DNA of 64,000 nt, taken from contig NW_027590215.1 of assembly GCF_964213995.1 (NCBI RefSeq), positions 248,001-312,000 of the forward strand, given 5' to 3'. The stretch is from Mustelus asterias. Taxonomy: Eukaryota. Shown piece by piece: positions 8,541 through 56,393 of the stretch (its first letter is position 1; the number at the start of each line of letters is the position of its first letter). The position numbers were made by a program, and so were the translations under genes. Below the pieces are notes generated by a model. That model saw only the letters and a program-made list of their open reading frames with translations, was not told where the DNA came from and searched no databases.

Positions 8541-9479
8541 ACTGTACTATGTTGCTCAGAAATAAGTTTTAGAATTTTGGCCGAGTGATTGTGAAGGCAG
8601 AGCAGTAAACTACCAAATCAGAATAGTGTGTGATTCTGAAGAGTAAATGCAGGTAGTGGGGTTTCCATGCACAAACTGCCCTAATCCATATTGGAGAAGA
8701 GGTTTGTAGTTTTGGAAGCTGCTGTCAAAGGAGGTTTAGCCAATTGCTGGTAATTCCAGTAATGTCCATGTTCCAGTTATTAATTTGAAAATTTTCTAAA
8801 TGAAAATTTAATGAAAATCCCCGACAGAACTACTTTTTCCTTACTTGAAACACAGCTTTAAATGGTCCGTTTGTTTCTAGATTCAGTTCCATGAGCAACG
8901 CCTTCAACTAAACAAAATCAAAACACTGCAGCTGCTGGAAATCTGAAATGAAAAGAGAAAACGTTGTAAATACTCATCAGGTTAGACAGCACCTATAGAG
9001 ACAGAAATAGAGTTAATGTTTGCAGTCACTGATGCTCCTCTAATAAAACACATACCAATAGCTGCTGTTTAATGGGGCCGTGGATCCCACAATCCCCTGT
9101 GCCCCAGAAACAGCTCTATCCACCACACACATTTCCCATTATGACACTTCTATGTCAAGAGGGCGAGCTGGTTAAAAGTCGTCAAGTTCCATTTTTGCGT
9201 GTTGATGTTCATTAAAGCTACGGATCGACTTCCCCCTCATTATGTATCAATTTCAGATACTTTGGTCGAGAATTTCCATTCCCCTACTTCCTGGTGGATA
9301 ATGGATGCCTTGAGCACTTCGATTACAGTACAATTTGATTCCTAATTTTATTAACTGCACCCCTATCCCTAATTTTCACATCGCAGCAGAAAAAGCTACT
9401 GTTCACAAATGAGGAGTTTCGATGGCGTGCGTTTTACCCACCATTCCTCGCGGTGGGGAATGTCCCCTATCCACAGTGA

Positions 9480-12390: not shown

Positions 12391-12448
12391 AAAGTCGAGC
12401 AGAAGCTAAACTTGAGCAGAGAATGTCTCTGGTGTTATTATGTGGTCA

Positions 12449-12588
12449 TGATGTGGAGATGCCAGCGTTGGACTGGGGTAAACACAGTAACAGTTTTAAC
12501 AACACCAGGTTAAAGTCCAACAGGTTTATTTGGTAGCAAATACCATTAGCTTTCGGAGCGCTGCTCCTTCGTCAGATGGAGTGGAAAT
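12449..12588 (-). mobile_element. Penelope-like pLTR 3' fragment, family 1
   Basis: Same sequence as 17357-17772, 23905-23970, 29881-30080 and 42550-42701; contains a hammerhead core. Confidence 0.75.
12543..12579 (-). ncRNA. Minimal type I hammerhead ribozyme
   Basis: Minus strand CCAU-CUGACGA-A-GGAGC-AGC-GCUCC-GAAA-GC-UA-AUGG: intact CUGANGA and GAAA boxes, stem I CCAU/AUGG, stem II GGAGC/GCUCC. Confidence 0.8.
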
Positions 12589-12989
12589 CAGATTTTCCAG
12601 TCATAGAGTCATTCCAGCACAGAAGGAGTCCATTGGATAACTCGAGTCCATACTGACTCTCACTGTAACTTCATAGTTTTTCACAGTTTTTTTGTGATTT
12701 TCACAGTGAGTTCATTGCAGTGTTAATGTCAGCATGCTTGTGACACGAACTAATAAATTATCAAAAGTAAACTATAAATCCTCTGTCGCGCAATTCTGTC
12801 AGTCTGGAGTGGGTCCCATTCTGTAACCCTGCAGCACCCATCTAATCTCATTTAGAAATTATTGATCATCTCTGCTTGACTACCCCCACAGGCAGCAAGT
12901 TCAAGATCATAATTAATCACAACCCCCTGTATCTTAACCAACTGGAGCCATCCGATCCATTAAATATATTTTTAGTTCAGTCATAGCAG

Positions 12990-13840
12990 AGATATTTGTA
13001 TCATCGATAGTCACAGGTGAGGTGCCTGAAGGTTGGAGAGTGGCAAATGTTGTGCCTTTGTTTGAAAAGGGCTGCAGGGAAAAGCCTGGGAACTGCAGGC
13101 CAGTGAGCCTCACATCTGTGGTGGGTAAGTTGTTGGAAGGTATTTTGAGAGACAGGATCTACAGGCATTTAGAGATGCAATGACTGATTAGGGACAGTCA
13201 GCATGGCTTTGTGAGTGGTGAAGAAGGCATTCAGCGTGCTTGGTTTCATTGGTCACAACATTGAATACAGGAGTTGGGATGTCTTGTTGAAGTTGTACAA
13301 AACATTGGTAAGGCCACACTTGGAATGCTGTGTACAGTTCTGGTCACCCTATTATAGAAAGGATATTATTAAACCAGAAAGAGTGCAGAAAATAATTATT
13401 AGGATGCTACTGGGACTTGATGGTTTGAGTTATAAGGAGAGGCTGGATAGACTGGAACTTTTTTGTCTGGAGTGTCGGAGGCTTAGGGGTGATCTTATAG
13501 AGGTCTATAAAATAATGAGGGGCATAGATCAGCTAGATAGTCAATATCTTTTCCCAAAGTAGGGGAGTCTAAAACTAGAGGGCATAGGTTTAAGGTGAGA
13601 GGGGCAATTTTTTCATACAGAGAATGGTGAGTGTCTTGAACAAGCTGCCAGAGGTAGTAGTAGAGGCGGGTACAATTTTGATTTTTAAAAAGCATTTAGA
13701 CAGTTACATGGGTACGATGGGTATGGAGGGATATGGGCCAAACGCGGGCAATTGGGACTAGCTTAGGGGTTAAAAAAAAAGGCGGCATGGACAAATTGGG
13801 CCGAAGGGCCTGTTTCCATGCTGTAAACCTCTATGACTCT
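12990..13840 (+). mobile_element. CR1 fragment with internal deletion
   Basis: WRVANVVPLF..QHGF joined at about 13215 to VKKAFSVLGFI..LVRPHLECCVQFWSPYY; 3' tail ctatgactct. Confidence 0.85.
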
Positions 13841-13889
13841 CGAGACTGTCTGGCAGCCTGCATGGAGATTTTCAGCTCTCTGTGTCCAG

Positions 13890-13955
13890 GGCAGGAAGCA
13901 GTGAGCATGGATCTGTCAATCAGCCTCAATCAGCACCTTCAGGAGAATTGGGAGG
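13890..13955 (+). other. Putative short 5'-UTR exon of the ZNF gene at 14486
   Basis: ctctctgtgtccAG|...gggagg|GTgaat; homologs at about 48608-48663 (+), 60553-60610 (-) and, more degraded, 30770-30830. Confidence 0.5.
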
Positions 13956-14485
13956 GTGAATGTTAGATACAGCAGAGTGAGAATGGAGGGAGAGTGTGTG
14001 GGATGGAGATTCACAGCTTTTGGGGAACGAGAGAGGAAAGAATGTTCTATAGAAACGAGAATTGTCTGTTCTGAATTTCGATCCTGTATTGACAGTGATG
14101 ACTTTTGTAAACTCCTTTTACAGGCTATCAGAAGGTGAGGATTTACAGACAGAAATCTTAAACCAAACGTCACATCAACATCTGACAGAGTCACTCAATT
14201 CAACGGGACCTGAATATCATCGGCCTTTGAATCTAGTAGGAGAAATGTTTTTCTGTTCTGTCTGCTTCAGGAGATTTTAAACATCAGTGTGACTGGAAAA
14301 GCACCGAGTCACACACACACCAGAGTGAGAGTGTTCCAGTGCATTGCGTGTGGAAAACGCTTCAGTTGCACAGCCTGAAAAAACATCGCAGCATTCACAG
14401 CGGGGAGAGACTGTACCCGTGTTCTGTGTATGGATGAGGTTTCAACTGATTGTCCGACCTGGAGAGTCACAAGGACACCTGCACC

Positions 14486-15076
14486 ATGGAAAAACGGTGG
14501 AAATGTGGGGACTGTGGGAAGGGATTTAGATACCCTTCTCACCTGGAAACTCATCGACGCAGTCACACTGGGGAGAGACCGTTCACCTGTTCTCAGTGTG
14601 GGAATGGATTCAGTCGATTATCCACTCTGCAGACACACCAGAGAGTTCACAATGAGGAGAGGCCATTCATCTGCTTTCATTGTGGGAAGAGATTCACTCA
14701 GTCATCCGCCCTGCAGACACACCAGCGAGTTCACAATGAGGAGAGACCATTCATCTGCTCTCAGTGTGGGAAGGGATTCAGTCAGTCATCCAGCCTGCAG
14801 ACACACCAGCGAGTTCACACTAGGGAGAGGCCGTTTACCTGCTCTCTGTGTGGGAAGGGATTCACTCAGTTATCCCATCTGAAGACACACCAACGGTTTC
14901 ACACTGGGGAGAGGCCGTTCACCTGCCCTCAGTGCGAGAAGGGATTTGCTCAGTTATCCACTCTTCAGACACACCAGCGAGTTCACACCAAGGAGAGACC
15001 GTTCACCTGCTCTCAGTGTGGGAAAGGATTCACTCAGTTATCCAACCTGCGGAGACACCAGCGAGTTCACATGTGA
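14486..15076 (+). CDS. C2H2 zinc-finger protein, 196 aa, 7 fingers
   Basis: Kozak accATGg start MEKRWKC within ORF 14450-15076; seven canonical fingers; acceptor ttttacag at 14123. Confidence 0.85.
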
Positions 15077-15319
15077 TTCCAGGGGTTGGATTCTGCTGTT
15101 ATTGTTTCTGCTCTCAGTTACATCCAGGACTGCATTTTGTTCATTCTCACAGTTGGTCACTGGGGAGAATTGGAGGCTCTCTGTCTGCTGGACTGGCCGG
15201 TCTCACCACTTTGTCTCCAGTGGGCTGATAATCTTTTAACCTTGTTTTGAATATCTGGCTTTGGATTTCTCAAGGATCACAGAGTGAAAGGGTGTTCGGA
15301 AGTTTAAAGATATTTTGTT

Positions 15320-16410
15320 CACAATACTGTTTGGAAGGCTCGCAAAGCATGCAGAGGGAGTAGTGAGCATGAGGAACTGAAAGAGATTAGTATTAGTGAA
15401 AAAGTAGCACTGGAGAAATTAATGGGGTTGGAAGTGAATAAATCCCCAAAAGCTGCTGATCTACATCCCAGAGTGTTGGAAGAGGTGGCTGTGGAGATAG
15501 TGGATACATTGGTGGTCATCTTTCCAAATTCTATAGATTGTGGAATGGTTGCTGCAGATTGGAAGGTGGTAAATGAAACCCCACTGTTTAAGGAGGGAGA
15601 GAGAAAACGGGGAACCACAGACCCACCAGCCTGACATCAGCCAGAGGGAAAATGCTCCAATCTATTGTACAGGATGTGATAACAGATGAATGTGCACATT
15701 CAGAACAGGGGTACGTCCCTCGTGCCTGCTTCACCATTCAATATGTGCACAGCTGATCTGATTGTAACCTCAACTTCACATTCCCGCCGACCCCCCGATA
15801 ACCTTTCAGCCCCTTGCTTATTAAGGAATCTATCCAGCTCTGCCTTCAGAATATTCAGAGACTCTGCGTCCACTGCCCTTTGAGGAAGAGAGTTCCAGAC
15901 ATTCAGACCCTCTGAGAGGAAGACGTTCTCCTGTTATTTGTTTTAATCGAGCCGCCTCTTACTCTTCTAAACTCCAGTCGATACAAGCCTAGCCTGTCCA
16001 ATCATTCCTCATTAGACAAACCAGCCATTTCAGGTATTAGTCCAGTAAACCTTCTCTGAGCTGTTTCCAATGTGTTTACATCTTTCCTAAGTGAGAGCCA
16101 TACTGTACACAGTACTCCAGATGGTTTCACCAATATCCTGTATAATCTCCCTACTTTTTTATTCAATTCCCTTCGCAATAAACAGCAACATTCCATTAGC
16201 TTTCCCAATTCCTTGCTGTACCTGTATACCGGCCTTGTGTGATTCATGCACTGGGACACCCAGATCCCTCTGCAATCCCAGCTCTGCAATCTCACACCAT
16301 TTAAATGATAAGCTTCTCTTTTTATTCTTCCTGCCAAAATGGATGATTTGACTTTTTGCCACATTATATTCCATTTCGCAGATCTTTGCCCCGGTCTTAA
16401 CCTATCTATA
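15320..16410. mobile_element. CR1 fragments (+ at about 15320-15690, - at about 15700-16410)
   Basis: KSPKAADLHPRVLEEVAVEIVD and MEYNVAK..LQRDLGVPVHES..KANGML. Confidence 0.8.
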
Positions 16411-16419
16411 TATTTTTGT

Positions 16420-16850
16420 AACCAAAAAGAGAAGATGCTGGAAAATCTCAGCAGGTCTGGCAGCATCTGTAAGGAGAGAAAAGAGCTGACGTTTCGAGTC
16501 CAGACGGCCCTTTGTTAAAGCTAAAAGGCAGAGAAAGTGGGAGATGTTTATACTGCCGGGTGAGGGAATTAAAAATGAGTCATAGCCACAGAAACCAGGG
16601 GGAAAGACTGCTCATAGCTGTCCACAGAGAGAATAAAGGGTGTGAATGGCCAAAAGATAGAGAAGCTAAAATGAACATGTTTGGGAGTCGGGGGGGGGGG
16701 GGGGGGGCGGCGTGGTGGATGGAATGAATGGGACGAGGTAAGATTTAGCAAAGAGGGAGAAAAGGTCAGGGAAGGGGAATAAAGTAGGGAGAAAGAGTGG
16801 GAGGGAGGAAGAAAAATGAAGAAACACAATCAAGAAATAAAAATATACAT
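16420..16850 (-). mobile_element. Penelope-like family 2 fragment
   Basis: Minus strand ..agctttaacaaagggccgtctggactcgaaacgtcagct..acagatgctgccagacctgctgagattttccagc; purine/pyrimidine-skewed body. Confidence 0.55.
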
Positions 16851-17419
16851 TTTTGTAGTCTCCTTATGTCGTCTTCACAACTTTCCTACCTATCTTTATG
16901 CCATTAGCAAATTTAGCAACCACCCCCTCAGTCCTTTCACCTCAGTCTAAGGGCTAAAAGGGGTCACGAGAAAGCATTGGGCAGCAGGATTAAGGAAAAT
17001 CCCAAGGCTTTTTATACATATATAAAGAGCAACAGGGAGAGGGTTGGTCCACTCAAGGACAGTGGAGGGAATCTGCGTGGAGCCAGAGGAAATGGCGATG
17101 TATTAAATGAGTACTTTGCGTCTGTATTCATCAAAGAGAAGGACTTGGTGGATGATGAGTCTGGGAAAGGGTGTGTGGATAGTTTGAGTCATGTTGAGAT
17201 CAAAAAGGAGGAGGTATTGGGGTTCTTGAGAAACATTAAGGTAGACAAGTCCCCAGGGCCTGATGGGATATACCCCAGAATACTGAGAGAGGCAAGGGAG
17301 GAAATTGCTGGGGCCTTGAGAGAAATCTTTGTATCATCACTGGCTACAGAGGAGGTAAACACAGTAAGAAGTTTAACAACACCACGTTAAAGTCCAACAC
17401 GTTTATGTGGTAGCAAATG

Positions 17420-17456
17420 CCACTAGCTTTCGGAGCGCTGCCCCTTCGTCAGGTGG
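17420..17456 (-). ncRNA. Minimal type I hammerhead ribozyme
   Basis: CCAC-CUGACGA-A-GGGGC-AGC-GCUCC-GAAA-GC-UA-GUGG. Confidence 0.8.
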
Positions 17457-17643
17457 ACTTGCAAAATCTCACTCGCCCTCCTGTCTGGAGACAATACACA
17501 TCTCTTTAAGCTGTGCTTAATGCTCTCTCCACTCACATTGTCTGTATCTTTAAGACTTGATTAGCTGTATTAGCATTCCAATCATTATTCTGTAAATTGA
17601 GTTGGTGTCTCTGTATGTCCTGTTTGTGAGCACATCTCCCACT

Positions 17644-17680
17644 CCACCTGACGAAGGGGCAGCGCTCCGAAATCTAGTGG
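17644..17680 (+). ncRNA. Minimal hammerhead ribozyme, variant in the stem III loop
   Basis: CCAC-CUGACGA-A-GGGGC-AGC-GCUCC-GAAA-UC-UA-GUGG; the AGCU palindrome is changed to AUCU. Confidence 0.65.
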
Positions 17681-19183
17681 CATTTGCTACCAAATAAACC
17701 TGTTGGACTTTACACTGGTGTTGTTAGACTTCTTACTGTGTTTAGCCCAGTCCAACACCGGCATCTCCACAAACAGAGGAGGTCCCAGAGGATTGGAGAA
17801 TAGCCAATATTGTTCCTTTGTTTAAGAAGCGTAGCAAGAACAATCCAGGTAATTACAGGCTGGTGAGCATTACATCAGTGGTAGGGAAATTATTGGAGTG
17901 GATTCTTCAAGATAGGATTTATTCCCACTTGGAAACAGATGTATTAGCAAGAGACAACATGGTTTTGTGAAGGGGAGGTCGTGTCTCATTAAATTGATTG
18001 AGTTTTTTGAGGAAGTGACGAAGATGATTGATGAGGGTAGGGCAATGGATGTTCTCTACATGGATTTCAGTAAGGCCTTTGACAAGGTCCCTCAAAATGT
18101 AACTGGTTTGATTAGTAAGTTTGCAGACGACTCAAAGGTTGATGGATTTGCAGATAGTGATGAGGACCATCAGAGGATACAGCAGGATATAGATCGGTTG
18201 GAGACTTGGGCGGAGAGATGGCAGATGGAGTTTAATCTGGACAAATGTGAGGTAATGCATTTTGGAAGGTCTAACACAGATAGGAAATATACAGTAAATG
18301 GCAGAACCCTTTAGAGCATTGATAGGCAGAGGGATCTGGGTGTACAGGTACACAGGTCACTGAAAGTGGCAATGCAGGTGGAGAATGTAGTCAAGAAGAC
18401 ATACAGCATGCTTGCCTTCATCGGCCGCGGTATTGAGTTTAAAAATTGGCAAGTCATGTTGCAGCTTTATAGAACCTTAGTTAGGCCGCACTTGGAATAT
18501 AGTGTTCAATTCCCGTTGTCACACTCCCAGAGAATGTGTAGGCTTGGAGAGGGTGCAGAAAAGATTTACCAGGATGTTGCCTGGTATGGAGGGCATTAGC
18601 TATGAGGAGAGGTTGGAGAAACTTGGTTTGTTCTCACTGGAATGACAGAGGTTGAGGGGCGACCTGATAGAAGTCTACAAGATTATGAGAGGCATAGAGA
18701 GAGTGGATAGTCAGAAGCTTTTTCCCAGGGTGGAAGACCCAATTACTAGGGGGCACAGGTTTAAGGTGCGAGGGGCAAGATTTAAAGGAGATGTACAAGG
18801 CAGGTTTTTTTTACACAGAGGGTGGTGAGTGCCTGGAACTCGCTGCCGGGGGAGGTAGTGGAAGCAGATACGATAGTGACTTTTAAGGGGCGTCTTTACA
18901 AATACATGAATAGGATGTGAATGGAGAGATATGGCCCCCGGAAGGTAGGGGTTTTAGTTAGGTCAGGCAGCATGGTCAGTGCAGGCTTGGAGGGCCGAAG
19001 GACCTGTTCCTGTGCTGTAATTTTCTTTGTTCTTTGTAAGTCATCTATATCAATTGTAAAATGTTGGAGCCCCAGCACTATACCCTGTGACAGCTCTCAT
19101 TACATTTTGACAACCAGAAAATGACCTACATATGCCGAGTGTTTCCTGCTAGCTAGCCAATCTTCTATCCAAGCCAATATGAT

Positions 19184-19485
19184 GGGGCGACACGGTAGCA
19201 CAGTGGTTAGCACTGCTGCTTCACAGCTCCAGGGACCTGGGTTTGATCCCGGCTCGGGTCACGTGGAGTTTGCACATTCTCCTCGTGTCTGCGTGGGTTT
19301 CCTCTGGGTGCTCCGGTTTCCTCCCACAGTCCAAAGATGTGCGGGTTAGATTGATTGGCCATGCTAAAATTGCCCCTTAATGTCCTAAAATGCATAGGTT
19401 AGAGGGATTGGGTGGGATTGTGGTTGGTGCAGACTCGATGGGCCGAATGGCCTCTTTCTGCACTGTGGGGATTCTGTGATTGTAT
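19184..19485 (+). mobile_element. HE1/V-SINE-like copy inserted in a minus-strand CR1 fragment (about 19040-19565)
   Basis: SINE head and body; flanks encode LDFQKAFDKV on the minus strand. Confidence 0.85.
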
Positions 19486-19764
19486 GTTATCCCCACAGCT
19501 TTTATTTGTTGCAATAACCTTTGATGTTGTACCTTATCAAATGCTTTCTGGAAATCTAAGTGCATTAAAATGTACTTTAGGGAAGGAAATCTGCCATACT
19601 TACTGGGCCTGTTCTACATGTGACTCGAGAGCCACAGCAATGTGTTTGACTCGCAAATGTCCTCCAAGGATATCAAGGGATGGGCAGTAAATGTTACCCC
19701 AATAAATGTTGCCCAGCCAGGGACGTGTCCCATGAATGAATAAAAATATGTGGAATGTACAGAC

Positions 19765-20150
19765 TGGGGAACAATGGGTGGGGGCGGCGCTCCCGGGTCC
19801 GCGCGCCTGAACCCGGAGACGTCACCGCGAAGCAGAGTGATTGCTATTGGCTGATTCAGGCAGGGCTCCATTGTGCCGTCACAATGACTCAGAGGGGCGT
19901 TCCCAGCACACAGTGTCCCATTGGCAGCAATGTCACTGGTTACAGAAGCAAAACACTGCGGATTGGACACCAGCTCAGCGCGGCTGGCGGTCAAAGCCCC
20001 GCCCACCCCCACGTGGGCTCGGGTTCCGCCCTCTCATTGTCTATATGCGGCAGATTGACCAATGGCAACGTGTGGAGGACCGGATGGGCGCTGGTCCTCC
20101 AGCCAATCAGAGTCCGGGCTTTGTATCAATGACCGCGTGGAGCTCCCTGT
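19765..20150 (+). promoter_or_regulatory. CpG-island promoter of the ZNF gene at 21.8 kb
   Basis: GC boxes, several CCAAT/ATTGG boxes, GACGTCA, GGAGGACC-N11-GGTCCTCC at 20074-20100; homologous to 28800-28932(-) and 62480-62620(-). Confidence 0.7.
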
Positions 20151-21045
20151 GGACCTGAATGTGGGGGGTTCGATCAGTAAGTTTGTTGATGATACAAAAA
20201 TTGGTGGTAAATAGCGAGGAGGAAAGCCTGAGATTACAGGAGGATATGGACGGGCTGGTCAGATGAGCAGAACAGTGGCAAATGTAATTTAACCCCCTAA
20301 AGTCCGAGGTGATGCGTTTTGGGCGGACTAACAAGGCAAGGGAATAGACAATGAACAATAGGACACCAGGAAGTACAGAGGACCAGAGGGACCTTGGGGC
20401 GCATGTCCATAGGACCCTGAAGACAGTCGGACAAATTGATAAAGTGGTTAAGAAGGATATGGGATACTTGCCTTTTTTAACCGAGGCATAGAATATTAGA
20501 GCAAACAAGTTATGATTGAGCTGTATAAAAAGCTGGAGTACTGTCTGCAGTTCGGGTCGCCACATTTTAGCAAGGATGTGATTGCGCTAGAGAAGGTGCA
20601 GAGCAGATTCACCAGGATGCTGCCTGGGCTGGAAAGTTTCAGCCATGAAGAGAGGCTGGTGAGGCTGGAATTGTTCTCCCTAATTCAGAGAAGGCTGAGG
20701 GGGCCCTGATTGGGATGTACAAAAATATGAACCCTTAGTTCAAGTAACTTTAGTAGCTGGGTCAACATCCAGATTTAAGGTGAGGGGCAGGAGATTTAGA
20801 GGGGAATTGAGGGAAAAGATTTTCACCCTGAGGATTGTGGAATCAGGAACTCGCTGCCTGAAAGGGTGGGAGAGGTGGGAACGCTCAACATTAAGAAGCA
20901 TTTAGATGAGCACTTGAAATGCCATCGCTTACAAGGCTACTACTGACCAAATGGTGGAAGGTGGGATTAGAACAGATCGATGCTTGAGAGCTGGCACAAA
21001 TTCGATGGGCCAAAGGGCCTCTTGCTGTGCTTTAAAACTCTGAGG
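20150..21045 (+). mobile_element. Old CR1 3' fragment
   Basis: ISKFVDDTK..LEYCLQFGSPHFSKDVIALEKVQSRFTRMLPGL. Confidence 0.8.
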
Positions 21046-21797
21046 ACAGAAATATGACCAGTGTTGTTATGTGATAAATATCGGATGGTTCTGCAATAAA
21101 GTACATTTATTATTATTTCTAGTCTTGTAATATAGTACTGTAGCTCCGTCATATATTTCCAGTCAGAGTCATTACAGCATAGGAGGAGTTCATTGGACAA
21201 CTCCAGTCCCTGCCGAGCAATTCTGTCAGTCTGGAGTGGGTCCCATTCTGTAACCCTGCAGCACCCATCCAATCACATTCAAAATTACTGACCATCTCTG
21301 CTTGACTCCCCTCATAGGCAGCAAGGTCAAGAACATGACCAATCACAACCCCCTGTATCTTAACCAACTTACAGATTTAGTGGAATGAGTGGGGAAAGAA
21401 TGTTCCTTAGAAACTAGAATTCTAGTTCTGAATTTTGATCCTGTACTGACTGTGATTTCTGTCGCAAACTCCTTTACAGGAATATCAGAAGGTTAAGATC
21501 CATAGACGGAAATCCCAAACCAAACATCACATCAAGATCTGACAGTCGCTCAATTCATCTGGACCTCAACATCATCGACCTTTGAATCTGGAAGGAGAAA
21601 TATTTCTGTTTTTTCTGCTTCAGAATGTTTAAACATCAGTGTGACTGGAAAGCACCGAGACACAAACACACCCGAGTGAGAGTGTTCCAGTGCACTGAGT
21701 GTGGAAAGAGCTTCAACCAGTTACACAGCCTGAAAATACATCGCAGCATTCACAGCGGGGAGAGACTGTACCCGTGTTCTGTGTGAGATTTAACTGA

Positions 21798-23093
21798 TTG
21801 TTTACCTGGAGAGTCACAAGGACACCCGAACCATGGAGAAACTGGAAATGTGGGGACTGTGGGAAGGGATACAGGTTCCCATCTCAGCTGGAAACTCATC
21901 GATGCAGTCACACCGGGGAGCGGCCATTCACCTGCTCTGTGTGTGGGAAGGGATTCACTCGGTCATCCAATCTGCTGAGTCACAATCTCACTCATGCCAG
22001 TGAGAGACCCTTTAAATGCTCTGACTGTGGGACTGGTTTCAAAAGCTCTCGGGATCTGGTGTCCCACCAGCGCATTCACACTGAGGAGAGACCGTTCAGC
22101 TGCTCTCACTGCACAAAGCAGTTTCAAACATCATCCAACCTGCGGAAACACCAGCAAGTTCACACCGAGGAGAGGCCGTTCACCTGCTCTGTGTGTGGGA
22201 AGAGATTCACTCTGTCATCCAATCTGCTGAGACACCAGCAAGTTCACACTGGGGAAAGACCGTTCACCTGCTCCGAGTGTGGGAACAGATTCACCCGGTT
22301 ATCCAGCCTGCAGAGACACAACGTCATTCACAACAGCGAGAGACCCTTTAAATGCTCTGACTGTGGGAGCGGATTCAAAAGGTCTCAGGATCTGATGGAT
22401 CACCAGCGCACTCACACTGTGGAGAGACCGTTCAGCTGCTCTCACTGCTCAAAGACATTTAGAAGATCATCCCACCTGCGGAATCACCAACGAGTTCACA
22501 CGAGGGAGCGGCCATTCACCTGCTCAGTGTGTGGGAGGGGATTCACTCAGTCATCCAGCCTGCAGAGACACAAAGTCACTCACAGCAATGAGCGACCCTT
22601 TAAATGCTCTGACTGCGGGAAAGATTTCAAAAGGTCTCACCAACTGTTGGTCCACCAGCGCATTCACACTGAGGAGAGACCATTCAGCTGCTCTCACTGC
22701 ACAAAGAGATTTACAACATCATCCTACCTGTGGGAACACCAGCGAGTTCACACCAATGAGCGACCATTTAAATGCTCTGACTGTGGGAGTGGCTTCAAAA
22801 GGTCTCAGGATCTGGTGTCCCACCAGCGCATTCACACTGAGGAGAGACCGTTCAGCTGCTCTCACTGCACAAAGAGATTTAGAACTTCATCCAACCTGCG
22901 GAAACATGAGCGAGTTCACACCGGAGCGAAACCGTTCACATGCTCTCTGTGTGGGAAGGGATTCAGTGATTCATGCAACCTGCGAGAACACCAGCGAGTT
23001 CACGCCAGGGAGAGGCCATTCACCCGCTCGAAGTGTGGGAAAGGATTTAGTGATTCATCCCTCCTGCTGAGACACCAGCGAGTTCACAATTGA
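21798..23093 (+). CDS. C2H2 ZNF with 15 fingers (last lacks first Cys); family ATG at 21833 is out of frame, so possibly a pseudogene
   Basis: Open 431-codon frame starting at TTG; ATGGAGAAAC--TGGAAATGT lacks 2 nt compared with paralog ATGGAGAAACCGTGGAAATGT. Confidence 0.65.
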   Translation: MFTWRVTRTPEPWRNWKCGDCGKGYRFPSQLETHRCSHTGERPFTCSVCGKGFTRSSNLLSHNLTHASERPFKCSDCGTGFKSSRDLVSHQRIHTEERPFSCSHCTKQFQTSSNLRKHQQVHTEERPFTCSVCGKRFTLSSNLLRHQQVHTGERPFTCSECGNRFTRLSSLQRHNVIHNSERPFKCSDCGSGFKRSQDLMDHQRTHTVERPFSCSHCSKTFRRSSHLRNHQRVHTRERPFTCSVCGRGFTQSSSLQRHKVTHSNERPFKCSDCGKDFKRSHQLLVHQRIHTEERPFSCSHCTKRFTTSSYLWEHQRVHTNERPFKCSDCGSGFKRSQDLVSHQRIHTEERPFSCSHCTKRFRTSSNLRKHERVHTGAKPFTCSLCGKGFSDSCNLREHQRVHARERPFTRSKCGKGFSDSSLLLRHQRVHN

Positions 23094-23292
23094 TTACTGG
23101 GGTTGGATTCTGCTGTTATTGCTGCTGTTAATCACATCCAGGACTGAACCATGTTCACTCTGACAGTTGGTGAAGTGGGAGGGTCGGAGGGTTTCTTTCT
23201 GTTGGACTGGCTGGTCTCACGACTTTGCTTCCAGTGGGCTGATGCTCTTTGAGCCTGGGAGAGCACATTTCCACTGAAATGATCCACTAAAG

Positions 23293-23622
23293 CGGCACGG
23301 TAGCACAGTGGTTAGCACTGCTGCTTCACAGCTCCAGGGTCCTGGGTTCGATTCCCGGCTCGGGTCACTGTCTGTGTGGAGTTTGCACATTCTCCTCGTG
23401 TCTGCGTGGGTTTCCTCCCAGTGCTCCGGTTTCCTCCCACAGTCCAAAGATGTGCGGGTTAGGTTGATTGGCCAGGTTAAAAATTGCCCCTTAGAGTCCT
23501 GAGATGCGAGGATTAGCGGGTAAATGTGTGGGGGTAGGGCCTGGGTGGGATTGTGGTCGGTGCAGACTCGATGGGCCGAATGGCCTCCTTCTGCACTGTA
23601 GGGTTTCTATGTTTCTATGTTT
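23293..23622 (+). mobile_element. Young HE1/V-SINE-like copy with CTAAAG TSD in the ZNF 3' flank
   Basis: CTAAAG at 23287-23292 and 23623-23628; the paralogous site at about 50255 is empty. Confidence 0.92.
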
Positions 23623-23904
23623 CTAAAGATGATGAAGGACATTTATTTTATCCTGGATCGTAAAGAGTGCTTTTCCTACGACTAAGGTAGATTTAAAATA
23701 AATACAGAACTGAAAAAACGCAGCTGGTCTGGCAGCATCTGTGGAGAGAGAAATAGAGTTAATGTTTCACGTCCAATGTAACTCTACTTCAGAACTAAAG
23801 AGAGGGAGAAATATGATGGGTTTGATGCTGCTGAGAAAGGGGGGAGGGGCAGGTAGAACTAAAGGGAGAGTCAGGGATTGGTTAGAGGATGGGTGAGATT
23901 AAAT

Positions 23905-23970
23905 GACTTTAACCTGGTGTTGTTAAAACTCTTACTGTGTTTACCCCAGTCCAACGCCGGCATCTCCACA
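23905..23970 (+). mobile_element. Penelope-like family 1 extreme 3' end nested in a family 2 remnant (about 23705-24180)
   Basis: gactttaacctggtgttgttaaa..tgtgtttaccccagtccaacgccggcatctccaca. Confidence 0.75.
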
Positions 23971-26900
23971 TTGTAAAGAAACAAAGCATTGGTCCAGAGT
24001 AAGTGTTAATGGCAGAATAAAGGACAGCTCTGTCTGGAAGGAAAAAAACATGAAAACAAGATGCAGACTGGCACTCGGCAAAAAAAAAACTGGCTGTCAT
24101 TGACACGAGCAATAGAGAGACAGAAAGATGCCCCAGGCTCAAATGGGAAATCAAAACGTGTGGCTTTAAATGAACTGTTAGGATCTCTGTAACGATCAAC
24201 AATTTTTTAAAAAATGAATTCTAAACCCAGTAAGTAAAGAATCACACGACAAAGCTTCAAGTTTATGGCGTTGATTCTAACAAACTGGAGGCAACAATGA
24301 CTAAACACCTTTTTGAAGGGAACATAGCCCTTGAACTGTAAAATTAACCTTGCCGTTTTACTCTTAACACAATCAAATATCCACTCAATGGATATATTTT
24401 ACCCTGCCTTGGAATGTTGACACTCTTTCTCCAAAAACTCGCCCAAAGTGATTCTTCACTCCCCGAGTGTTTATTTCCTTTTCCAGTCTGGCAACCTTTA
24501 ATCCCAGAACTGTCTTTCACAGTGATGGTTCTCCTGGACATTTTCCCACTAACACAAGCAAGGCGAATCTTCCAGCCTTGTTTCACAATTCTCAGGAATT
24601 TGTGACCAACATTCGACATCGGAGCAGAAGTCGGCCATTTGGCCCTTTGAGTCGGCTCCACCGTTTATTTACATCATGGCTGATCTGTTTGTGTTGCGTT
24701 CTCGTGCTATACCCGATACTTTTGATGCCCTTATCCAACAAGAATTAGTATAAAGGCAAAATTCTGCTGTTGTTGGAATCTGAAACAAAAACAGAAAATG
24801 CTGGACAATCTCAGCAAGTCTGACAGCATCTGTAGAGAGAGAATAGAGACAACATTTTGAGTCAGGATTACTCTTTGTCAGAGGTGAAGGCAAGGAAAAT
24901 CGGACAAAATTGGGAAGCAATCTATTAAACCTCCTCTGAACCACTTTCAATGCATTTGTATCATTTCTTAAATAGGAGACAAAGCTGCACCGAGTGTTCA
25001 AGATGCAGTCTCAGCAACGCCCTGTATAACTGAAGCAGAACATCTTTACTCCTGTGTTCACTTTCTCTCATAATAAAGGATAACATTCCATTTGTAAGAA
25101 CTTTGATTTATTTGAACTAAGATTTATGGGGGTTCTCTTGTTTACAATAACCTCCCTCATCGTAAATCACACCAGGTTCCAGTGTCTTAACCATGTGGTA
25201 AGAAAGAACACATTAAATGGTGAATTCAGAAAGTTTATTTATCATTAAAAATGTAACAAGTCAGAAAGATAAAAACGGAGTGTCGATTAACAGTTAATAG
25301 AGAAAGTTTAACATTAACAATTGAACAGACTTCTCTCCATCCCTCTCAGACCAGGACATGAAGTGACCGCTCCAAAAACATGGATAACTTGTAAAACCAA
25401 CAGCTCTCCACACCTCTCTGTAAACATCTCTCCCTCCACCTCTCTCTACCAAATTGCCTTCTCAAGACCACTTTTTTATACTTTAAAAATGCCGAAAGCC
25501 CATCTTAGCCAATTCCCATAAATCTTCAATTATAAACTAAAATAGACATGAGTTTTCAGATGATTTGAAAAGAAATGAACTGTCTGCTGAAAGGGTTAAC
25601 TTTTCTACAGAACCTAAAGGGATGGGGAGTGAGCAGAAAAAATTGGCACACAATAATACTTCTTTGCACAAGTATAAAAATCAAAACAAACTAGATTGTA
25701 AACTTCATCTCTGAATTTTTTTGTTATATTCCATAACTTAATTATTTTTATTTGATCAGTTTTTGTTCGGGATGGATAACTTCTGTTCTTTATAAACTGA
25801 TTCACTCATTTTGTTTATTCTACATGGGCTCGGAGAATCAGAACCCAGACTTTATCATCCTTATCCTTTTTCCCCTTTTGCCACCACTCCCTCTGTTTTG
25901 CGGGAGGGTCGTGGGGTTTCCAATCAGACCGAATCATTTCATCATAAAAGTTAAATACTGCGGATGCTGGAATCTGAAACAACAACAGAAAATGCTGGAA
26001 AAGTTCAGCAGGTCTGACAGCATCTGTGGAGAGAGAATAGAGCCAATGTTTCAGGTATGGATGACCCTTCATAAGAGCTGTTATGAAGTGTCTTCCAGAC
26101 TTGAAATGTTGGCTGTATTCTCTAATAATGTTATCAATAAGTTTCTTGTTCTTAGTTTCCAAACAGCAGGTAAGAGACTTGTCCAGTCCTCACTCGAGCT
26201 CTGATTTTTTCACTGGCCATGCTTGGGTAAGATTATAACCATTAGAATCTACTCAGAGGTCTGCTTTTCAGTCCAGTGCTATTTGGAGTATACCGTTACT
26301 GCACCGACTAACGGGTCACATGTCCCTCACAGGTCTTATCACAAATTTGGGATAAAATAATTTAAACAATGCCTGAGAACGCTTTTTAACTTCTTAACCA
26401 ACTATCTGCCACTGTTTGTTGATTGGTCAGACCTCCTCTTCACAGATTCGGGAATCTCAGCCGCTGAACACCAGCCGGTCCTGGAATAAGATTAATTCTA
26501 ACTCATTTTGAATAAATATTCTCACCAGGTCCTCTGTCGGGGCCCTGCTAAGCAGCTTTAATGGTCCGTGATTGCAGAAACTGAGCAGTCACAGAAATGT
26601 GGTCAAGATAGTCCAGTCGCATAATGCCTCACATTCAATCTGCTGTCCTTCAATTATAACAGAATATGTGGCTGTATGTAGCTGCCTCGGCCACGATCAG
26701 CGCCAAAACTGCCTTCCTGAACTGCTACAATGCCTGAGGTGTAAGTACACCCACAGTGCTGTTAGGGAGGGATTTCCAGCTACACATTCCAGACTTTCAC
26801 TGGACTGTAGGTGGATACCAGATTGATATATTCCATTCAACCACACCCAAGGTGAGTTATTCCAATTCCTTTATTGTCCAGGACAATATATTCACAATAT

Positions 26901-27636
26901 CTTCAAAATAGAAATTAAACATTCCCATTTGGTTTCAGGTATTAACATATTCTGTTAGTTTGTTCTTTATTGTCAATGTCAGGCTGGGGTTGTTCCCCTT
27001 GGAGCAAAGGAGGTTGAGGGGAGATTTGATAGAGGTGGACAAGATTCTGACAGGTTTAGATAAGGTGGACAAAGAAAAGCTGTTCCCATTAGCTGATGAG
27101 ACAAGGATGAGGGGGACACAGATTTATGGTTTTGGGTCAGAGACGCGGGGCGGGGGGGAATGGGAGGAAGAATATTTTGATGGAGTGAATGATAATGACC
27201 TGGAACTCGCTGCCTATGAGGGTGGAGGAAGTGGAGACAATAAACAATTACAAAGGAAATTGGATGGGCTTCTGGGGGAGTTTCAAACAGAAATGCTGAT
27301 TAAATATCTCTGAACTTCCTCACTCCCTGTCACTCTGTGATCCTTGTGAAATTTAAAACCAGGTATTCACAACAAGACTCAAAGAGCATCAGCCCATTGG
27401 AGGCAAAGTTGTGAGACCGGCCAGTCCAGCAGAAAGAAACCCTCCGACCCTCCGCATTGACTAACTGTGAGAAGGAACAAAATGCAGTCCCGGATGTAAT
27501 TGAGAGCAGAAACAATAACAGCAGAATCCAACCCCTGTGAACTTGTTGGTGCCTCAGCAGCCGTGATGAAATTCTGAACACTTTTTATACACTGAGCAGG
27601 TGGACAGTTTCTCCCCAGTGTAACTTCACTGATGTC

Positions 27637-28539
27637 TCAACAGGTGGGATAACTGAGTGAATTCCTTCCCACACTCAGAGCAGGTGAATGGTCTCTCCCC
27701 ATGTGAATTTGCTGGTGTCTCTGCAGGTTGGATAACTGACTGAAACCCTTTCCACACTGAGAGCAAGTAAATGGCCTCTCCCCAGTGTGAACTCGCTGGT
27801 GTCTCCGCAGGTGGGATGACTGAGTGAATCTCTTCCCACACTGAGAGCAGGTGAACGGCCTCTCTCCAGTGTGAATTTGCTGGTGTTTCTGCTGGGTGGA
27901 TAACTGACTGAAACCCTTCCCACACTGAGAGCAGGTGAATGGCCTCTCCCCAGTGTGAACTCGCTGGTGTCTCCGCAGGTCGGATGACCAAATGAATCTC
28001 TTCCCACACTGAGAGCAGGTGAACAGCCTCTCCCCAGTGTGAACTCGCTGGTGTCTCCGCAGCTCGGATGACCGAGTGAATCTCTTCTCACACTGAGAGC
28101 AGGTGAATGGCCTCTCCCCGGTGTGAACTCGCTGGTGTGTCCGCAGGTCGGATGACCGAGTGAATCTCTTCCCACACTGAGAGCAGGCGAATGGCCTCTC
28201 CCCAGTATGAATTCGCATGTGTGTCCATAGATTGGATAACTGGTTGAATCCCTTCCTACACCGAGAGCAGATAAACAGCCTCTCCCCGGTGTGAATTCGC
28301 TGGTGTCTCTGCAAAGTGGATAACACAGTGAATCCCTTTCCACACTGAGAGCAGGTGAACGGTCTCTCTCCAGTGTGAACTCGCTTGTGTGACTGCAGGC
28401 TGGGCAACAGAGCGAATCCCTCCTCACACTGAGAGCAGATGAATGGCCTCTCCCCAGTGTGGCTGCGCCGATGAGCATCCAGCAGAGAGGGGGCTCTGTA
28501 TCCCTTCCCACAGTCCGCACATTTCCATGGTTTCTCCAT
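27637..28539 (-). CDS. C2H2 ZNF, 10 intact fingers, then a frameshift and two decayed fingers
   Basis: accATGg MEKPWKC at 28539; ORF shifts at HMG; decayed fingers continue to about 27535. Confidence 0.75.
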
Positions 28540-29090
28540 GGTGCAGGTGTCCTTGCCTCTCCGTTGGGTGACCAATCAGTTGAAGCCTTGTCCACACACA
28601 GAACACGGGTACAGTCTCTCCCTGCTGTGAATGGTGTGATATTTATTCAGGCTGTGTCACTGGTTAAAGCTCTTTAGTCAGTGCTCTGGAACACTCTCAC
28701 TCGGGTGTGGCAGTGTGTTGGTGCTTTTCCACTCACTGATGGCCGAAGTCTTTTCAAATCCAAGTGGAAGCTTTAATCTGAAGCTCAGTGGCCAACTTCC
28801 GCATTGAGACGTCACAATAAAGCGCTGCCTGAATCAGCCAATAGGAATTACTCGGCTCCGCAGGGCCGCGTCGGGGTTCCATGGCGCAGGCCCGGCTCGC
28901 GGACCCGGGAGCCCCGCCCCCGCCCATTGTTCCCCCTCCCCCTGCATCTCCTCCAGCCACGGTTTCCAGGCAACCGGCTGGCGGCTCCGGCCAGAGCGAG
29001 AAGCCGCTCGGTGATCTCCCCCTCCCCCCTCTCTCTCTGCGGCTGCTGCTCCAAAAAGAGATCGAGAACGACCGCTGGCGGCAGCCGCAC

Positions 29091-29251
29091 TGCGCCTGCT
29101 CCGGACAGCTGGGCTCAGCAGCGCTCTCTGCGCCTGCTCCGGACAGCTCGGCCCAGCAGCGCTCTCTGCGCCTGCTCCGGACAGGTCGGCGCAGCAGCGC
29201 TCTCTGCGCCTGCTCCGGACAGCTCGGCTCAGCAGCGCTCTCTGCGCCTGC
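29091..29251 (+). repeat. 38-bp GC-rich tandem repeat, 4 full copies plus a partial
   Basis: tgcgcctgctccggacagctcggctcagcagcgctctc at 29091, 29129, 29167, 29205. Confidence 0.95.
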
Positions 29252-29363
29252 GTGCTGGGCTGCCAGCTGAGGGAGTGGGGGAGGGGACTTTGCAAAATCT
29301 CTTCCCATCATTTTCTTCCAAGTCCCGCAGTTTGATTTGAAACAGAACAGTTTCTGTTTGTAG

Positions 29364-29528
29364 CTTCACCACAGACTCAAACTTCACCACAGACTCAAAC
29401 TTCACACACAGACTCAAACTTCACCACAGACTCAAACTTCACACATAGACTCAAACTTCACCACAGACTCAAACTTCACACATAGACTCAAACTTCACCA
29501 CAGACTCAAACTTCACCACAGACTCAAA
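29364..29528 (+). repeat. 18/19-bp tandem repeat, 9 copies
   Basis: cttcaccacagactcaaa / cttcacaca(c/t)agactcaaa. Confidence 0.95.
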
Positions 29529-29880
29529 CCTCCTCCTCTGGGCAACATCTGTGAGGAAAACACTTTCTTTCTCCCCCTGGGAAATACAGAGACAGAGAAA
29601 TTCTCTGGAACTGGAATTAGAGCTAAATATACTGAGGGGGAAAATGTGATTTTGTGGAACCTGTTTTTATTGTCTGAGCTTTTTAAAGTGTAATTTATCC
29701 TGTCTATTCAAACACTGTTTCTTAATGCATGATTCAGTGATGTTAATTTTAGATTAATTTTTTAAATGAAACATTGTCTTTCAGTTTATTCTATTGGGAT
29801 TTGTGGAATTTGTTTATTATAAGGTGACCATGAGGATCGTAACAACATTGATATGTCTGGTGTTGTTATATGGTGCATAA

Positions 29881-30080
29881 GATGTGGAGATGCCGGTGTT
29901 GGACTGGGGTGGGCACAGTAAGAAGTCTCACAACACCTGGTTAAAATCCAACAGGTTTATTTGGAATCATGAGCTTTCAGCGCGCTGCTCCTTCTCACCT
30001 GATGAAGGGGCAGCGCTCTGAAAGCTTGTGATTCCAAATAAACCTGTTGGACTTTAACCTGGTGTTGGGAGACTTCTTAC
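29881..30080. mobile_element. Penelope-like fold-back insertion with 10-bp TSD
   Basis: Inverted arms; TATATGGTGC at 29867-29876 and 30081-30090. Confidence 0.85.
29995..30031 (+). ncRNA. Minimal type I hammerhead ribozyme
   Basis: UCAC-CUGAUGA-A-GGGGC-AGC-GCUCU-GAAA-GC-UU-GUGA; stem I UCAC/GUGA. Confidence 0.75.
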
Positions 30081-30427
30081 TATATGGTGCGTATTAGGTA
30101 TGTTATTTATGGATTTGTATTGCAGTTGATGTTGTTTAATTCCAGAATAGTATTGTAACTACTCTGTATATTTTCCAGTCAAAGAGTCATCAGAGCACAA
30201 GATAAATCAATTCAGCAGCTTGAGTCCGTGCCAAGTCTCTGTCGGGGAATCCACTCAGTGCCATTTTTCCTCGATATCCCTGTTCCCCAGTACGTTTAAT
30301 TCCTTCAAGTGCCCGACAAATTTTATTTTGAAATCACTGGTCGTCTCCACTTCCACCACTTTCATCGTCAGTGAGTTCCAGAACATGGTTGCTTGCTCCC
30401 TAAGTCAAGTTCTTCCGCATCCATCTG

Positions 30428-30624
30428 TCATAGAATCATAGAAACCCTACAGTACAGAAAGAGGCCATTCGGCCCATCGATTCTGCACCGACCACAATCC
30501 CACCCAGGCTCTACCCCCATATCCCTACATATTTTACCCACTAATCCCTCTAATCTATGCATCCCAGGACACTAAGGGGCAATTTTAACATGGCCAATCA
30601 ACCTAACCCGCACATCTTTGGACT
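30428..30624 (-). mobile_element. 5'-truncated HE1/V-SINE-like copy
   Basis: Reverse complement of the SINE 3' half and tail. Confidence 0.85.
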
Positions 30625-30979
30625 TTAATCTCTAATCTCTAATCATGTATCTCTAATCATGTAATAGAGTTCTGAATATTGCTTACATTTTTAGTCCACT
30701 AAATATGCAAATTTTTTATATGCTTAGACACAAGCCTGTGTGAAGATTTCGGGAATATGTGTCCTGTACATGAAACAGTCAGCACGGATCTGTCGATTAG
30801 GATGAATCAGCACCCTCAGGACAATGTCTATTTCAGGTCCAGCAAAGTGAGAATGGAGGGATGAAGGTTTACAAATTTTCAAGAATGAGAGGAAAGAATG
30901 TTCCACAGAAACTAGAATTGTCTGTTCTGAGTTTTTATCCTGTACTGACAGCAATGATTCTTGTGAATTTCTTTCACAG

Positions 30980-32286
30980 GCTATTAGAAGGGGAGAATTT
31001 ACAGACACAAATCTCAACAAACATGACGTTAGCATCTGACAGAGTCACCCAATTATTCAGGATCTGAATACCATCGGCATTTGAAACTAGAATGGGAAAT
31101 GTTTGTCTGTCCCTTCAAACTGTTTAAACATCAGTGTGACTGGAAAATCACAGACACATTCACTCGAGTGAGAGTATTCCAGTGAACTGACTGTGGAAAG
31201 AGCTTTAACCAGTTACACAGCCTGGAAAAGATTGAAGGATTCACAGTGAGGAGAGACCATGTATGTGTTATCTGTGGGGTCAAACCTTCATCTGAACCTG
31301 GAGATGTACAAAGACACTCAGACCATGGAAATGTAGGGACTGTGGGAAGGGATTCAATTGTCCCTCGAAGCTGGAAACCCTTCGATGCAGCCACACTGTG
31401 GAGACACCGTTCACCTGCTTTGAGTTTGGAAGGGGATTTCGTGATTCATCCACCCTGAAGAATCACCAGCGACTTCACATCAGGGAGAGGCCATTCACCT
31501 GCTCTGAGTGTGGGAAGAAATTCAGCGATTCGTCTGCCCTGCTGACACACCAGCGGGTTCACAATGGGGAGAGACCATTCACCTGTTGTGTGTGTGGAAA
31601 GGGATTCACTCAGTCATCTACCCTGTAGAACCACCAGCGATTTCACACGGGTGAGGGACTGTTCCCCTGCTCAGAGCGTGGGAAGGGATTCACTCGCTCA
31701 TCCTTCCCGCTGACAAACCAACGCATTCACACTGGGCCGAGGCCATTCATCTGCTCCGAGTGTGGGAAGAGATTCACTCAATTATCTAGTCTGCTGAGAC
31801 ACAAACGATTACACACTGGGGAAAGGCCATTCATCTGATGTGTGTGTGGGAAGTGACTCAGTCAATCATCCAGTCTGCTGGAATACTGAGGCACCTCCCC
31901 CAATAAGAAACCTGTTCAATGCTCTGACTGTGGGAGCTGCTTTAAAACCTGAGCCTACCTGAGGGTCGACCAGCGCATTCACACTGAGGAGACCCCGTTC
32001 AGGCGCTCTCACTGTGCAAAGAGGTTTAGAACATCATCTGACCTACTGAAACATCAGGGAATTCACACTGGGGAGAGACCCTGATAATTCCCACTCACTT
32101 TCAGCGATTAATCATAAAACCTACCAGATTGGAAGCTTCTGCCTGAAATTTTATTTTCCCTCAGTTTCCAAACTGAGACCATTCACCTGCTCAGTGTGTG
32201 GGAAAGGATTCACTTGTTCATCCAAGCTGCTGAAACACCAGGGCAGTCACACCCATTAGTGATCTTTCGGATGCTCTGACTGTGGC
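30980..32286 (+). pseudogene. C2H2 ZNF pseudogene
   Basis: Finger repeats from about 31322 with several stops (e.g. TAG 31626) and frameshifts; cut by an LTR at 32287. Confidence 0.85.
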
Positions 32287-32945
32287 TGTTAATTATATCA
32301 ATAGAGGTGAAGTTTATTCAGATGGAGGGCACTGATTAGATAGTTATAATGAGCGGGTAAAAAGTGGGGCTCACTAATATAACTTGGAGTCAGAGTTCAA
32401 CCTGTAATGTTTGATTCTGTGAACAAATCTAGACCAAATAAAGATTGACTCCACCCCAAGGCTGTCAGGATTATAACATGGTAACAGAAAATGCTTGTCT
32501 AATGGTGAAGGTTGGAAACTAAAAGAAAGTATATTTCAGACAGAAGCTTCCAATCCCAGCAGCTTTTGTGAGAAATGACTGAAAGGCAGTGGGAATTGTC
32601 AGGGTCTGATTACCTGCTGATGCTCTCGGAGTCTGAACCATACAACCAGTGGAAGAATGAAGTGGCGATGTGGACACGGGTTACATCCCAATCAAGGAGG
32701 AAACAAGATCTGGCCTTGGCATTGTCACTTCCTAACACAAGGAAAATCAGCAACAAAGCATTTTCTGATCAGTCAAACTGCAAATTGATAACTGCACTGG
32801 CACGGATGATTCATGTAAAGAATTCACTTCAGGTGGTTGGAGGGTAGAATCCCTGTCAATTGGTCTATGGGAGAAATCCCTAATTCCCCTCTGTGCCGGG
32901 CGATCGATCGCCCTCCTGCTTTAAAGGGATACAATTAGTTCCATT
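32287..32945 (+). mobile_element. Internally deleted LTR retrotransposon, Copia GalEa-like: 5' LTR 32287-32478, PBS, gag start fused to an integrase fragment
   Basis: TGTTA...TAACA LTR with AATAAA; PBS-like TGGTAACAGA at 32479; SEPYNQWKNEVAMWTRVT..KQDLALALSLP (gag-like) then ITALA..HVKNSLQVVGG*NPCQLVYGRNP (integrase-like). Clade is from recalled motif similarity. Confidence 0.7.
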
Positions 32946-41481: not shown

Positions 41482-42154
41482 GGTGCAGGTGTCCTTACCT
41501 CTCTCTTGAGTGAACAATTCGTTGAAACTTCGTCCACACACACAACAAGATTACAGTCTCTACCCGCTGTGAATGGTGTGATATTTATTCAGACTGTGTA
41601 ACTGGTTAAAGCTCTTTAGTCAGTGCATTGGAACACTCTCACTCAAGTGTGTCAGAGTGTTGATGCTTTTTCACTCACACTGACATTTCAAATCTTTTCA
41701 AATCGACAGACTGGACAATCATTTCTCCTTCTGGATTCAAAGTTCGATGGTATTGAGGTCCCAAGGAATATGACTCTGTCAGATCTAGACGTGAAGTTTG
41801 AGATTTCAGCCTGTGATTCCTCTTTCAATATCCTGTAAAATGAGTTTACAAAAGTCATCAGTGTCAGTACAGGATAGAAATTCAGAACAGACAATTTCTA
41901 TGGAACATTCTTTCCTCTCTCATTCCCCAAAAGCTGGAAATCTCCATCCCACACACTCTCTCCCCATTCTCATCAGGTCTGGCAGCATCTGTATGGAGAG
42001 AAAATAACTGATGTTTCAGAGCTTTGACAAAGGGTCATCTAGACAAGAAACATCAGCTCTTTTCTCTCCTTACAGATGCTGCCAGACCTGCTGACATTTT
42101 CCAGCATTTTCTCTCTTGGTTTCAAACTCCTGCATCCGCAGTAATTTGCTTTTA

Positions 42155-50060: not shown

Positions 50061-50470
50061 TGACAGGGGTTGAATTCTGCTGTTATTGCTGCTGTTAATC
50101 ACATCCAGGACTGAACCATGTTCATTCTGACAGTTGGTGAAGTGGGAGGGTCGGAGGGTTTCTTTCTGCTGGACTGGCCGGTCTCACGACTTTGCTTCCA
50201 GTGGGCTGATGCTCTTTGAGCCTGGGAGAGCACATTGCCACTGAAATGATCCACAAAAGCTGATGAAGGACATTTATTTTATCCTGGATAGTAAATAGTG
50301 TTTTTCCTACCACTACAGGGAGATCTAAAATAAATACAGAAAGGACTGCAAAAATGCATTAGGTCTGGCAGCATCTGTGGAGAGAGAAACAGTGTTAATA
50401 TTTCACACTACTGGATTGGGAATCAATCTAGTAAATCTCCTCTGAACTGTTTCCATGGTATTTATAAAAT

Positions 50471-56388: not shown

Positions 56389-56393
56389 CCTAT

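Follow-up and report, generated by a model that had tools for sequence, protein, structure and literature searches.

Minimal hammerhead ribozymes in truncated Penelope-like insertions of the shark Mustelus asterias, probably inactive copies of an abundant parent element

Minimal type I hammerhead ribozymes are already known from the pseudo-long terminal repeats (pLTRs) of Penelope-like elements (PLEs). The metazoan forms described in PMC4209133 combine a short stem I, an extra base between A9 and stem II, a G10.1-C11.1 pair and palindromic positions 15.2-16.2 with no loop 3, and they occur as thousands of mostly single or opposite-strand copies that fall into sequence subfamilies. Endonuclease-bearing PLEs of the Neptune and Nematis types are described with one open reading frame (ORF) for reverse transcriptase (RT) and endonuclease, a Cys-rich linker, partial tandems that give rise to pLTRs, an inverted 5'-truncated arm, a one-sided tail of 30-40 bp, target duplications and palindromic junctions (PMC8557442, PMC3846280). 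In the PAc Poseidon element of Anolis, the tail is bounded by two internal RT start sites and the hammerhead lies near the ORF start (PMC11167929), and non-LTR retrozymes are characterized by a type I hammerhead, pLTR ancestry and, in vertebrates, dimer-dependent cleavage (PMC7229834, bioRxiv 10.64898/2026.07.22.740005). These systems provide the points of likeness for four hammerhead motifs that we describe here in 64,000 nt of the Mustelus asterias genome (contig NW_027590215.1, positions 248,001 to 312,000; hereafter, the window). Given the published precedent, the motifs are an expected PLE feature.

We conclude that the four motifs are very probably minimal type I hammerheads in the pLTR ends of three truncated PLE insertions, with a fold that is likely to be selected in active parent elements only and with copies in the window that are likely to be inactive. 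The conclusion is based on the anatomy of the parent element, on two-arm insertions that have a one-sided tail and target duplications, on copies whose decay looks neutral, and on the excess of those that begin at the predicted cut site. Each 37-mer contains CUGA(C/U)GA and GAAA, a 4-bp stem I (CCAU/AUGG in one copy, CCAC/GUGG in two and UCAC/GUGA in one) and a stem II of 5 bp. Helix III is replaced by the palindrome AGCU in three of the four copies and by AUCU in the other, just as the initial annotation of this DNA had described it. The bare sequence pattern is weakly above chance (six matches in the window against 2.27 expected, a number reached by 3 of 100 shuffles). When a descriptor demanded the core, at least four stem II pairs, UH and at least three stem I pairs, exactly the four annotated hammerheads were returned, on the strands proposed for them (mean 0.01 and maximum 1 in 200 dinucleotide shuffles). 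An Rfam scan of the window matched no hammerhead family at E<=1; these are minimal forms without helix III. The scan that had been suggested as a check was positive for the descriptor and negative for the curated models. The four hammerheads are as follows.

12543-12579 (-): hammerhead of the U-A/CCAU subfamily with AGCU and an intact core; cut predicted between 12547 and 12546
17420-17456 (-): hammerhead with AGCU and an intact core, which the opposite arm is predicted to sequester; cut predicted between 17424 and 17423
17644-17680 (+): hammerhead with AUCU, palindrome lost (a homodimer would form two of four pairs); sequestration predicted
29995-30031 (+): hammerhead with C11.1>U (G10.1-U11.1), at the tip of a long hairpin; cut predicted between 30027 and 30028

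The motifs sit in the pLTRs of truncated insertions of a very abundant PLE. Four motifs correspond to three insertions (A, B and D), as 17420 (-) and 17644 (+) are inverted arms of the same one, and two further insertions in the window have no hammerhead.

12446-12589 (-): insertion A, one tailed pLTR arm, 5'-truncated a short way upstream of the hammerhead and in antisense orientation to the ZNF gene at 13855-15076
17357-17772: insertion B, two head-to-head pLTR arms within a fragment of a long interspersed nuclear element (LINE); 11-bp target duplication at 17346-17356 and 17773-17783
23905-23971 (+): insertion C, a pLTR end with tail, no hammerhead
29880-30080: insertion D, a near-perfect fold-back arm pair from an older subfamily; its 13-bp target duplication, at 29867-29879 and 30081-30093, has one mismatch
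42550-42702: insertion E, two short arms, no hammerhead; 13-bp target duplication

The minus arm of insertion B is without a tail, and its plus arm carries the 3' untranslated region (UTR) and tail. In insertion D, the minus arm is inverted and partly deleted, with a damaged hammerhead. The plus arm of insertion E begins at 42641, the first base past the predicted cut. Insertion B was found again with its flanks on several other contigs at 91-100% identity (loci L002-L006, L008, L009 and L011), and has therefore multiplied as the ZNF cluster underwent segmental duplication. Insertions A and D, which belong to different subfamilies, lie at most a few bases away from one homologous site (12430-12450 and 29855-29880), which in paralogous ZNF genes precedes a small exon; empty paralogous sites are found near 21043 and 63633. 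Beside this site is a 12-nt stretch resembling one inside the pLTR itself. With two insertions, the shared site is either a target hotspot or a coincidence.

To place these copies in the 3.68-Gb genome, 140 evenly spaced 10-kb stretches of large contigs were sampled. The even sample contained 123 pLTR arms, in which the hammerhead was parsable in 93 copies and fully intact in 54, and the tetramer AGCU was present in 53 of 56 descriptor matches. If the sample is typical, we estimate approximately 140,000 intact cores genome-wide (107,000-185,000), many times the 4,000-9,000 copies given for coelacanth and Xenopus in PMC4209133. Stem II has 5-6 bp here, against 7-8 bp in Schistosoma as described in the same source. 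The 3' ends of the sampled arms fall into two modes, ~35 nt apart. Two-arm events made up 23 of 95 events, nearly all with the tail on one arm only, and 23 candidate target duplications measured 8-14 bp (mode 12), with no clear target motif visible by eye among them. The 5' breakpoints differ between copies and form a continuum with those of ORF-bearing copies. A single young subfamily accounts for 49,966 exact matches genome-wide.

The sequence upstream of longer copies encodes an RT and an endonuclease-like end. A 259-aa piece of the RT gave 26,561 first-look candidates, of which 147 were scored, and many lie within open frames of 800-990 codons. Among 20 long-frame loci fetched, L105 and L106 proved to be complete parents, each consisting of a pLTR with hammerhead, an ATG just past the tail and 130 nt downstream of the first core base, an 893-aa ORF, and a second pLTR with hammerhead. 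The two parental hammerheads are in direct repeat, 3097 nt apart, and so have the arrangement that a dimer needs. The 893-aa protein matches RVT_1 (E 9.4e-10), and has a YIDD motif and a Cys-rich C-x4-C-x2-C linker. Endonuclease motifs were recognized by eye in its C-terminal part, the Atlas neighbours of which include GIY-YIG clusters (score 0.96; 31% of that cluster's members); the parent protein did not match Pfam GIY-YIG, and a PDB sequence search with it returned none at E<=1. The initial annotation had attributed the inserts to PLEs and proposed a search for an autonomous GIY-YIG/RT parent, and both the origin and the parent are confirmed by L105 and L106, with the GIY-YIG assignment resting on the motifs and the Atlas neighbours. 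A CX2-5CxxC-type linker is described as a mark of Neptune and Nematis (PMC8557442, PMC3846280), and on this linker motif the parent may be placed in a Neptune/Nematis-type clade. The ATG lies past the tail here, compared with its position inside stem II in the Anolis PAc element (PMC11167929). At the start of the parental tail (L106:2190-2223), a pyrimidine tract ends in CAG shortly before the ATG and resembles a splice acceptor, and AAUAAA occurs ~15 nt past the predicted cut in the parent pLTR. Public contigs listed for the parent pLTR, whose status as RNA is a guess, showed no RNA ends and no spliced joint.

From this anatomy and these counts, we infer a sequence of steps that includes cleavage and a start site. 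The parent would be transcribed from its upstream pLTR, and the two hammerheads of one transcript could pair via AGCU and cut a minority of RNAs, with dimer cleavage perhaps helped by the element's protein, as shown for Anolis. Reverse transcription may begin at either of two internal sites flanking the tail. It would mostly read through the hammerhead on uncut RNA templates and so scatter dead copies like the four in the window, while run-off at the cut or at the capped 5' end would yield short arms.

Covariation of stem I between subfamilies had been put forward in the initial annotation as a demonstration of selection for the fold. The stem I pairings do differ as described, but the argument was overstated. 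Pair 1 of stem I is C-G in 56, U-A in 23 and some other combination in 14 of 93 copies. In a tree of the upstream UTR that excluded the hammerhead (39 of 54 rows left after thinning of near-copies), the 10 U-A rows form one clade (support 100/99), so that the switch between C-G and U-A was a single event. Pair 4 is so mixed (C-G 24, U-G 17, U-U 16, U-A 16, U-C 13, other 7) that the contrast between CCAC/GUGG and UCAC/GUGA does not represent a conserved pair. The G-U pairs of stem II in the window stem from simple transitions, one A>G change and one CpG C>T change, and CpG decay in other copies breaks pairs or the core (C-A at pair 5 in 11 of 93, G12>A in 13 of 93). C11.1>U is present in 8 of 93, and the decay of the copies looks neutral. 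Non-CpG mismatches numbered 12/837 in the core and 83/3255 in the flank, figures that are both biased by the match filters and that we do not take as selection on the copies.

Other features of the sequence appear to offer better support than covariation for selection on master elements. Position N7 varies freely among sampled copies (C 35, U 32, A 24, G 2), while H17 avoids G (U 48, A 23, C 20, G 2 among 93). A G at position 17 blocks hammerhead cleavage, and N7 is free. Pair 3 of stem II (A-U 66, G-U 19 and G-C 6 among 93) moves stepwise from A-U to G-U and on to G-C, accompanied by a longer stem II in the young subfamily. Furthermore, a second, older family has a palindrome of its own, ACGU, in 7 of 13 copies, with CpG-decayed forms in five more. 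Selection on the fold is likely to have acted only in active parent elements.

We next consider where genomic copies begin. Starts of the young subfamily, counted with three mismatching letters in front, numbered 1148 at the predicted cut, 363 at -1 and 343 at -2; with one shared filter, there were 701 starts at the cut against 165 at +1. This 3-4-fold excess over neighbouring bases involves a few percent of copies, and agrees with the cut after GCUA/GCUU that had been predicted beforehand, as far as cleavage can be judged from copy ends. None of 10 cut-site loci inspected was a simple internal deletion, and most were two-arm junctions. The excess is possibly a trace of cutting in the living animal.

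There is also a pile-up of breaks at the front edge of the hammerhead, where 34 of 118 arms in the even sample break 27-46 nt upstream of the cut. Break density is 0.019 per nt there, compared with 0.006 immediately downstream and <=0.004 upstream. Counted per event, the pile-up departs from a uniform spread with p ~1e-6 and from the downstream stretch alone with p 0.002; restricted to single arms, it loses strength (12 in 20 nt, compared with 13 in 45 nt). A genome-wide count falls from 31,281 to 24,515 over 10 nt at the front edge, a figure without a comparator. The pyrimidine tract at the front edge resembles the initiator consensus. An initiator-like TCACT is named in a rotifer pLTR (PMC3846280), and a transcription start in Drosophila is placed in the pLTR (PMC2377424). 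We tentatively suggest, as a reading that could well be correct but is not the one we would presume, that copy 5' ends form a fossil map of germline RNA ends, in which the cut-site peak would reflect in vivo cleavage and the upstream pile-up transcription start. A rival cause of the pile-up is fold-back at short palindromes near -44. A search of the open-access literature, with supplements and Repbase outside its scope, found no report of a cut-site footprint and no report of such hammerheads in a shark.

Several observations weigh against functional hammerheads, and should be set beside other explanations of the motifs. Folded alone, each window copy forms stems I and II, but none of these monomer folds stands out significantly from shuffles (z -1.9 to +0.2). 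In a modelled dimer the AGCU helix gives just ~0.5-1 kcal/mol, and without constraints the cofold of the three AGCU copies comes out ~9-11 kcal/mol lower. Stem I has a single double-sided change, which arose once, and its pair 4 is U-U in the youngest subfamily. With regard to the cut-site excess, junction microhomology lets some calls shift by one base, the three-letter filters differ in pass rate, and 0 of 118 arms in the even sample begin exactly at the cut (1 of 118 in another count). In Anolis the hammerhead could be dispensed with in vitro, and the RNA-seq data described in PMC11167929 had no reads ending at the cut, in contrast to the excess of genomic copies at that site here. A rival reading is that the hammerhead is selected in masters yet would seldom or never cut in vivo, acting instead as a protein-binding or folding signal, with the cut-site excess arising from microhomology. 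The in vivo role of PLE hammerheads is given as unclear in the relevant passages of PMC8557442 and PMC4209133, low activity even for dimers is described in the latter, and Naiads thrive without hammerheads according to the former. Among the sampled arms, 93 of 123 run through the hammerhead, which indicates that most templates were uncut or re-ligated, and AAA, the commonest prefix among the 100 cut-site matches listed, is readable with a one-base shift. Nevertheless, we consider a signal without cleavage improbable: the avoidance of G at H17 and the freedom of N7 are what catalysis requires, and unambiguous junctions at the cut are also common, in addition to the absence of simple internal deletions noted above. 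Far less probable still, and largely excluded, is that the short inserts make up a non-autonomous retrozyme family of their own, spreading as small circular RNAs. Many inserts are indeed short and ORF-less, and retrozymes derive from pLTRs (bioRxiv 10.64898/2026.07.22.740005). However, retrozymes are described as direct tandem arrays of fixed monomers; the window contains no such arrays, and the arms here are dispersed, single or inverted and variably truncated, with 5' breakpoints that differ per copy and merge into those of ORF-bearing copies. Every two-arm insert, moreover, has its own target duplication.

The remaining explanation, that window copies, above all the one at 29995, cis-cut host ZNF pre-mRNA, is equally remote. 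The initial annotation had raised this possibility with the proviso that the gene appears to be a pseudogene, and that part of the description holds.

29550-30177 (+): GT...AG intron of a ZNF pseudogene, inferred from splice motifs and a paralogous exon; holds insertion D
30979-32081 (+): decayed C2H2 zinc-finger exon with five in-frame stops in the finger array

The 29995 copy does lie on the sense strand of the inferred intron, and its core letters are intact except for C11.1>U. With 300 nt of upstream context, however, the probabilities of stems I and II drop to 0.00-0.01 in all four copies and to 0.00 for 29995. The stems of insertions B and D are predicted to be lost in context because of a long duplex with the opposite arm, and insertion D folds as a hairpin of -143 kcal/mol (z -16.9); the competing fold of insertion A is weaker, and the prediction less sure. 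The antisense arm upstream in its own insertion is predicted to pair with the 29995 copy throughout; the copy also has the G10.1-U11.1 pair and no same-strand partner nearby. As modelled, therefore, cutting of host ZNF pre-mRNA is unlikely and the proposal is not supported, because stems are predicted to be buried or copies are decayed, including the lost palindrome at 17644, because the ZNF exon has five stops, and because insertion A is antisense to its ZNF neighbour. The folds suggest that the four window copies are likely inactive passengers. Public contigs listed for 28600-32300, the RNA status of which is a guess, contained no spliced joint and provide no evidence on expression; one contig, of another organism, runs unspliced across 29694-29912. 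A GC-rich stretch with tandem repeats at 28750-29550 lies between divergent ZNF genes (27637-28575 minus; 30979-32081 plus), and is likely to be their shared promoter region.

The window holds other repeats. Decayed copies of the older hammerhead-like family were observed at 560-645, 8914-9027, 16420-16512, 23696-23768 and 24750-24883, and further copies at 25932-26133, 42018-42155, 50323-50388 and 57702-57847. In these the ACGU palindrome is followed by a pyrimidine tract and CAG, some form fold-back pairs, none within the window has an intact core, and the copies gave weak miRNA-like Rfam matches. A LINE with an open 1011-aa endonuclease-RT frame (53386-56418, minus strand) and an upstream 314-aa frame (56394-57338, minus strand), resembling an esterase-type ORF1, is CpG-rich and is therefore probably young.

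The finding does not point to host gene regulation. If copy 5' ends do map RNA ends, the mRNA would begin with the hammerhead at its extreme 5' end, and the copies would constitute in vivo evidence, of a kind absent from the papers cited here, for cleavage by a minimal PLE ribozyme. With ~50,000 near-identical copies of a young subfamily, together with ORFs, the in vivo question can be addressed from the genome, and the same subfamily provides a substrate for assays of dimer and protein-assisted cleavage.

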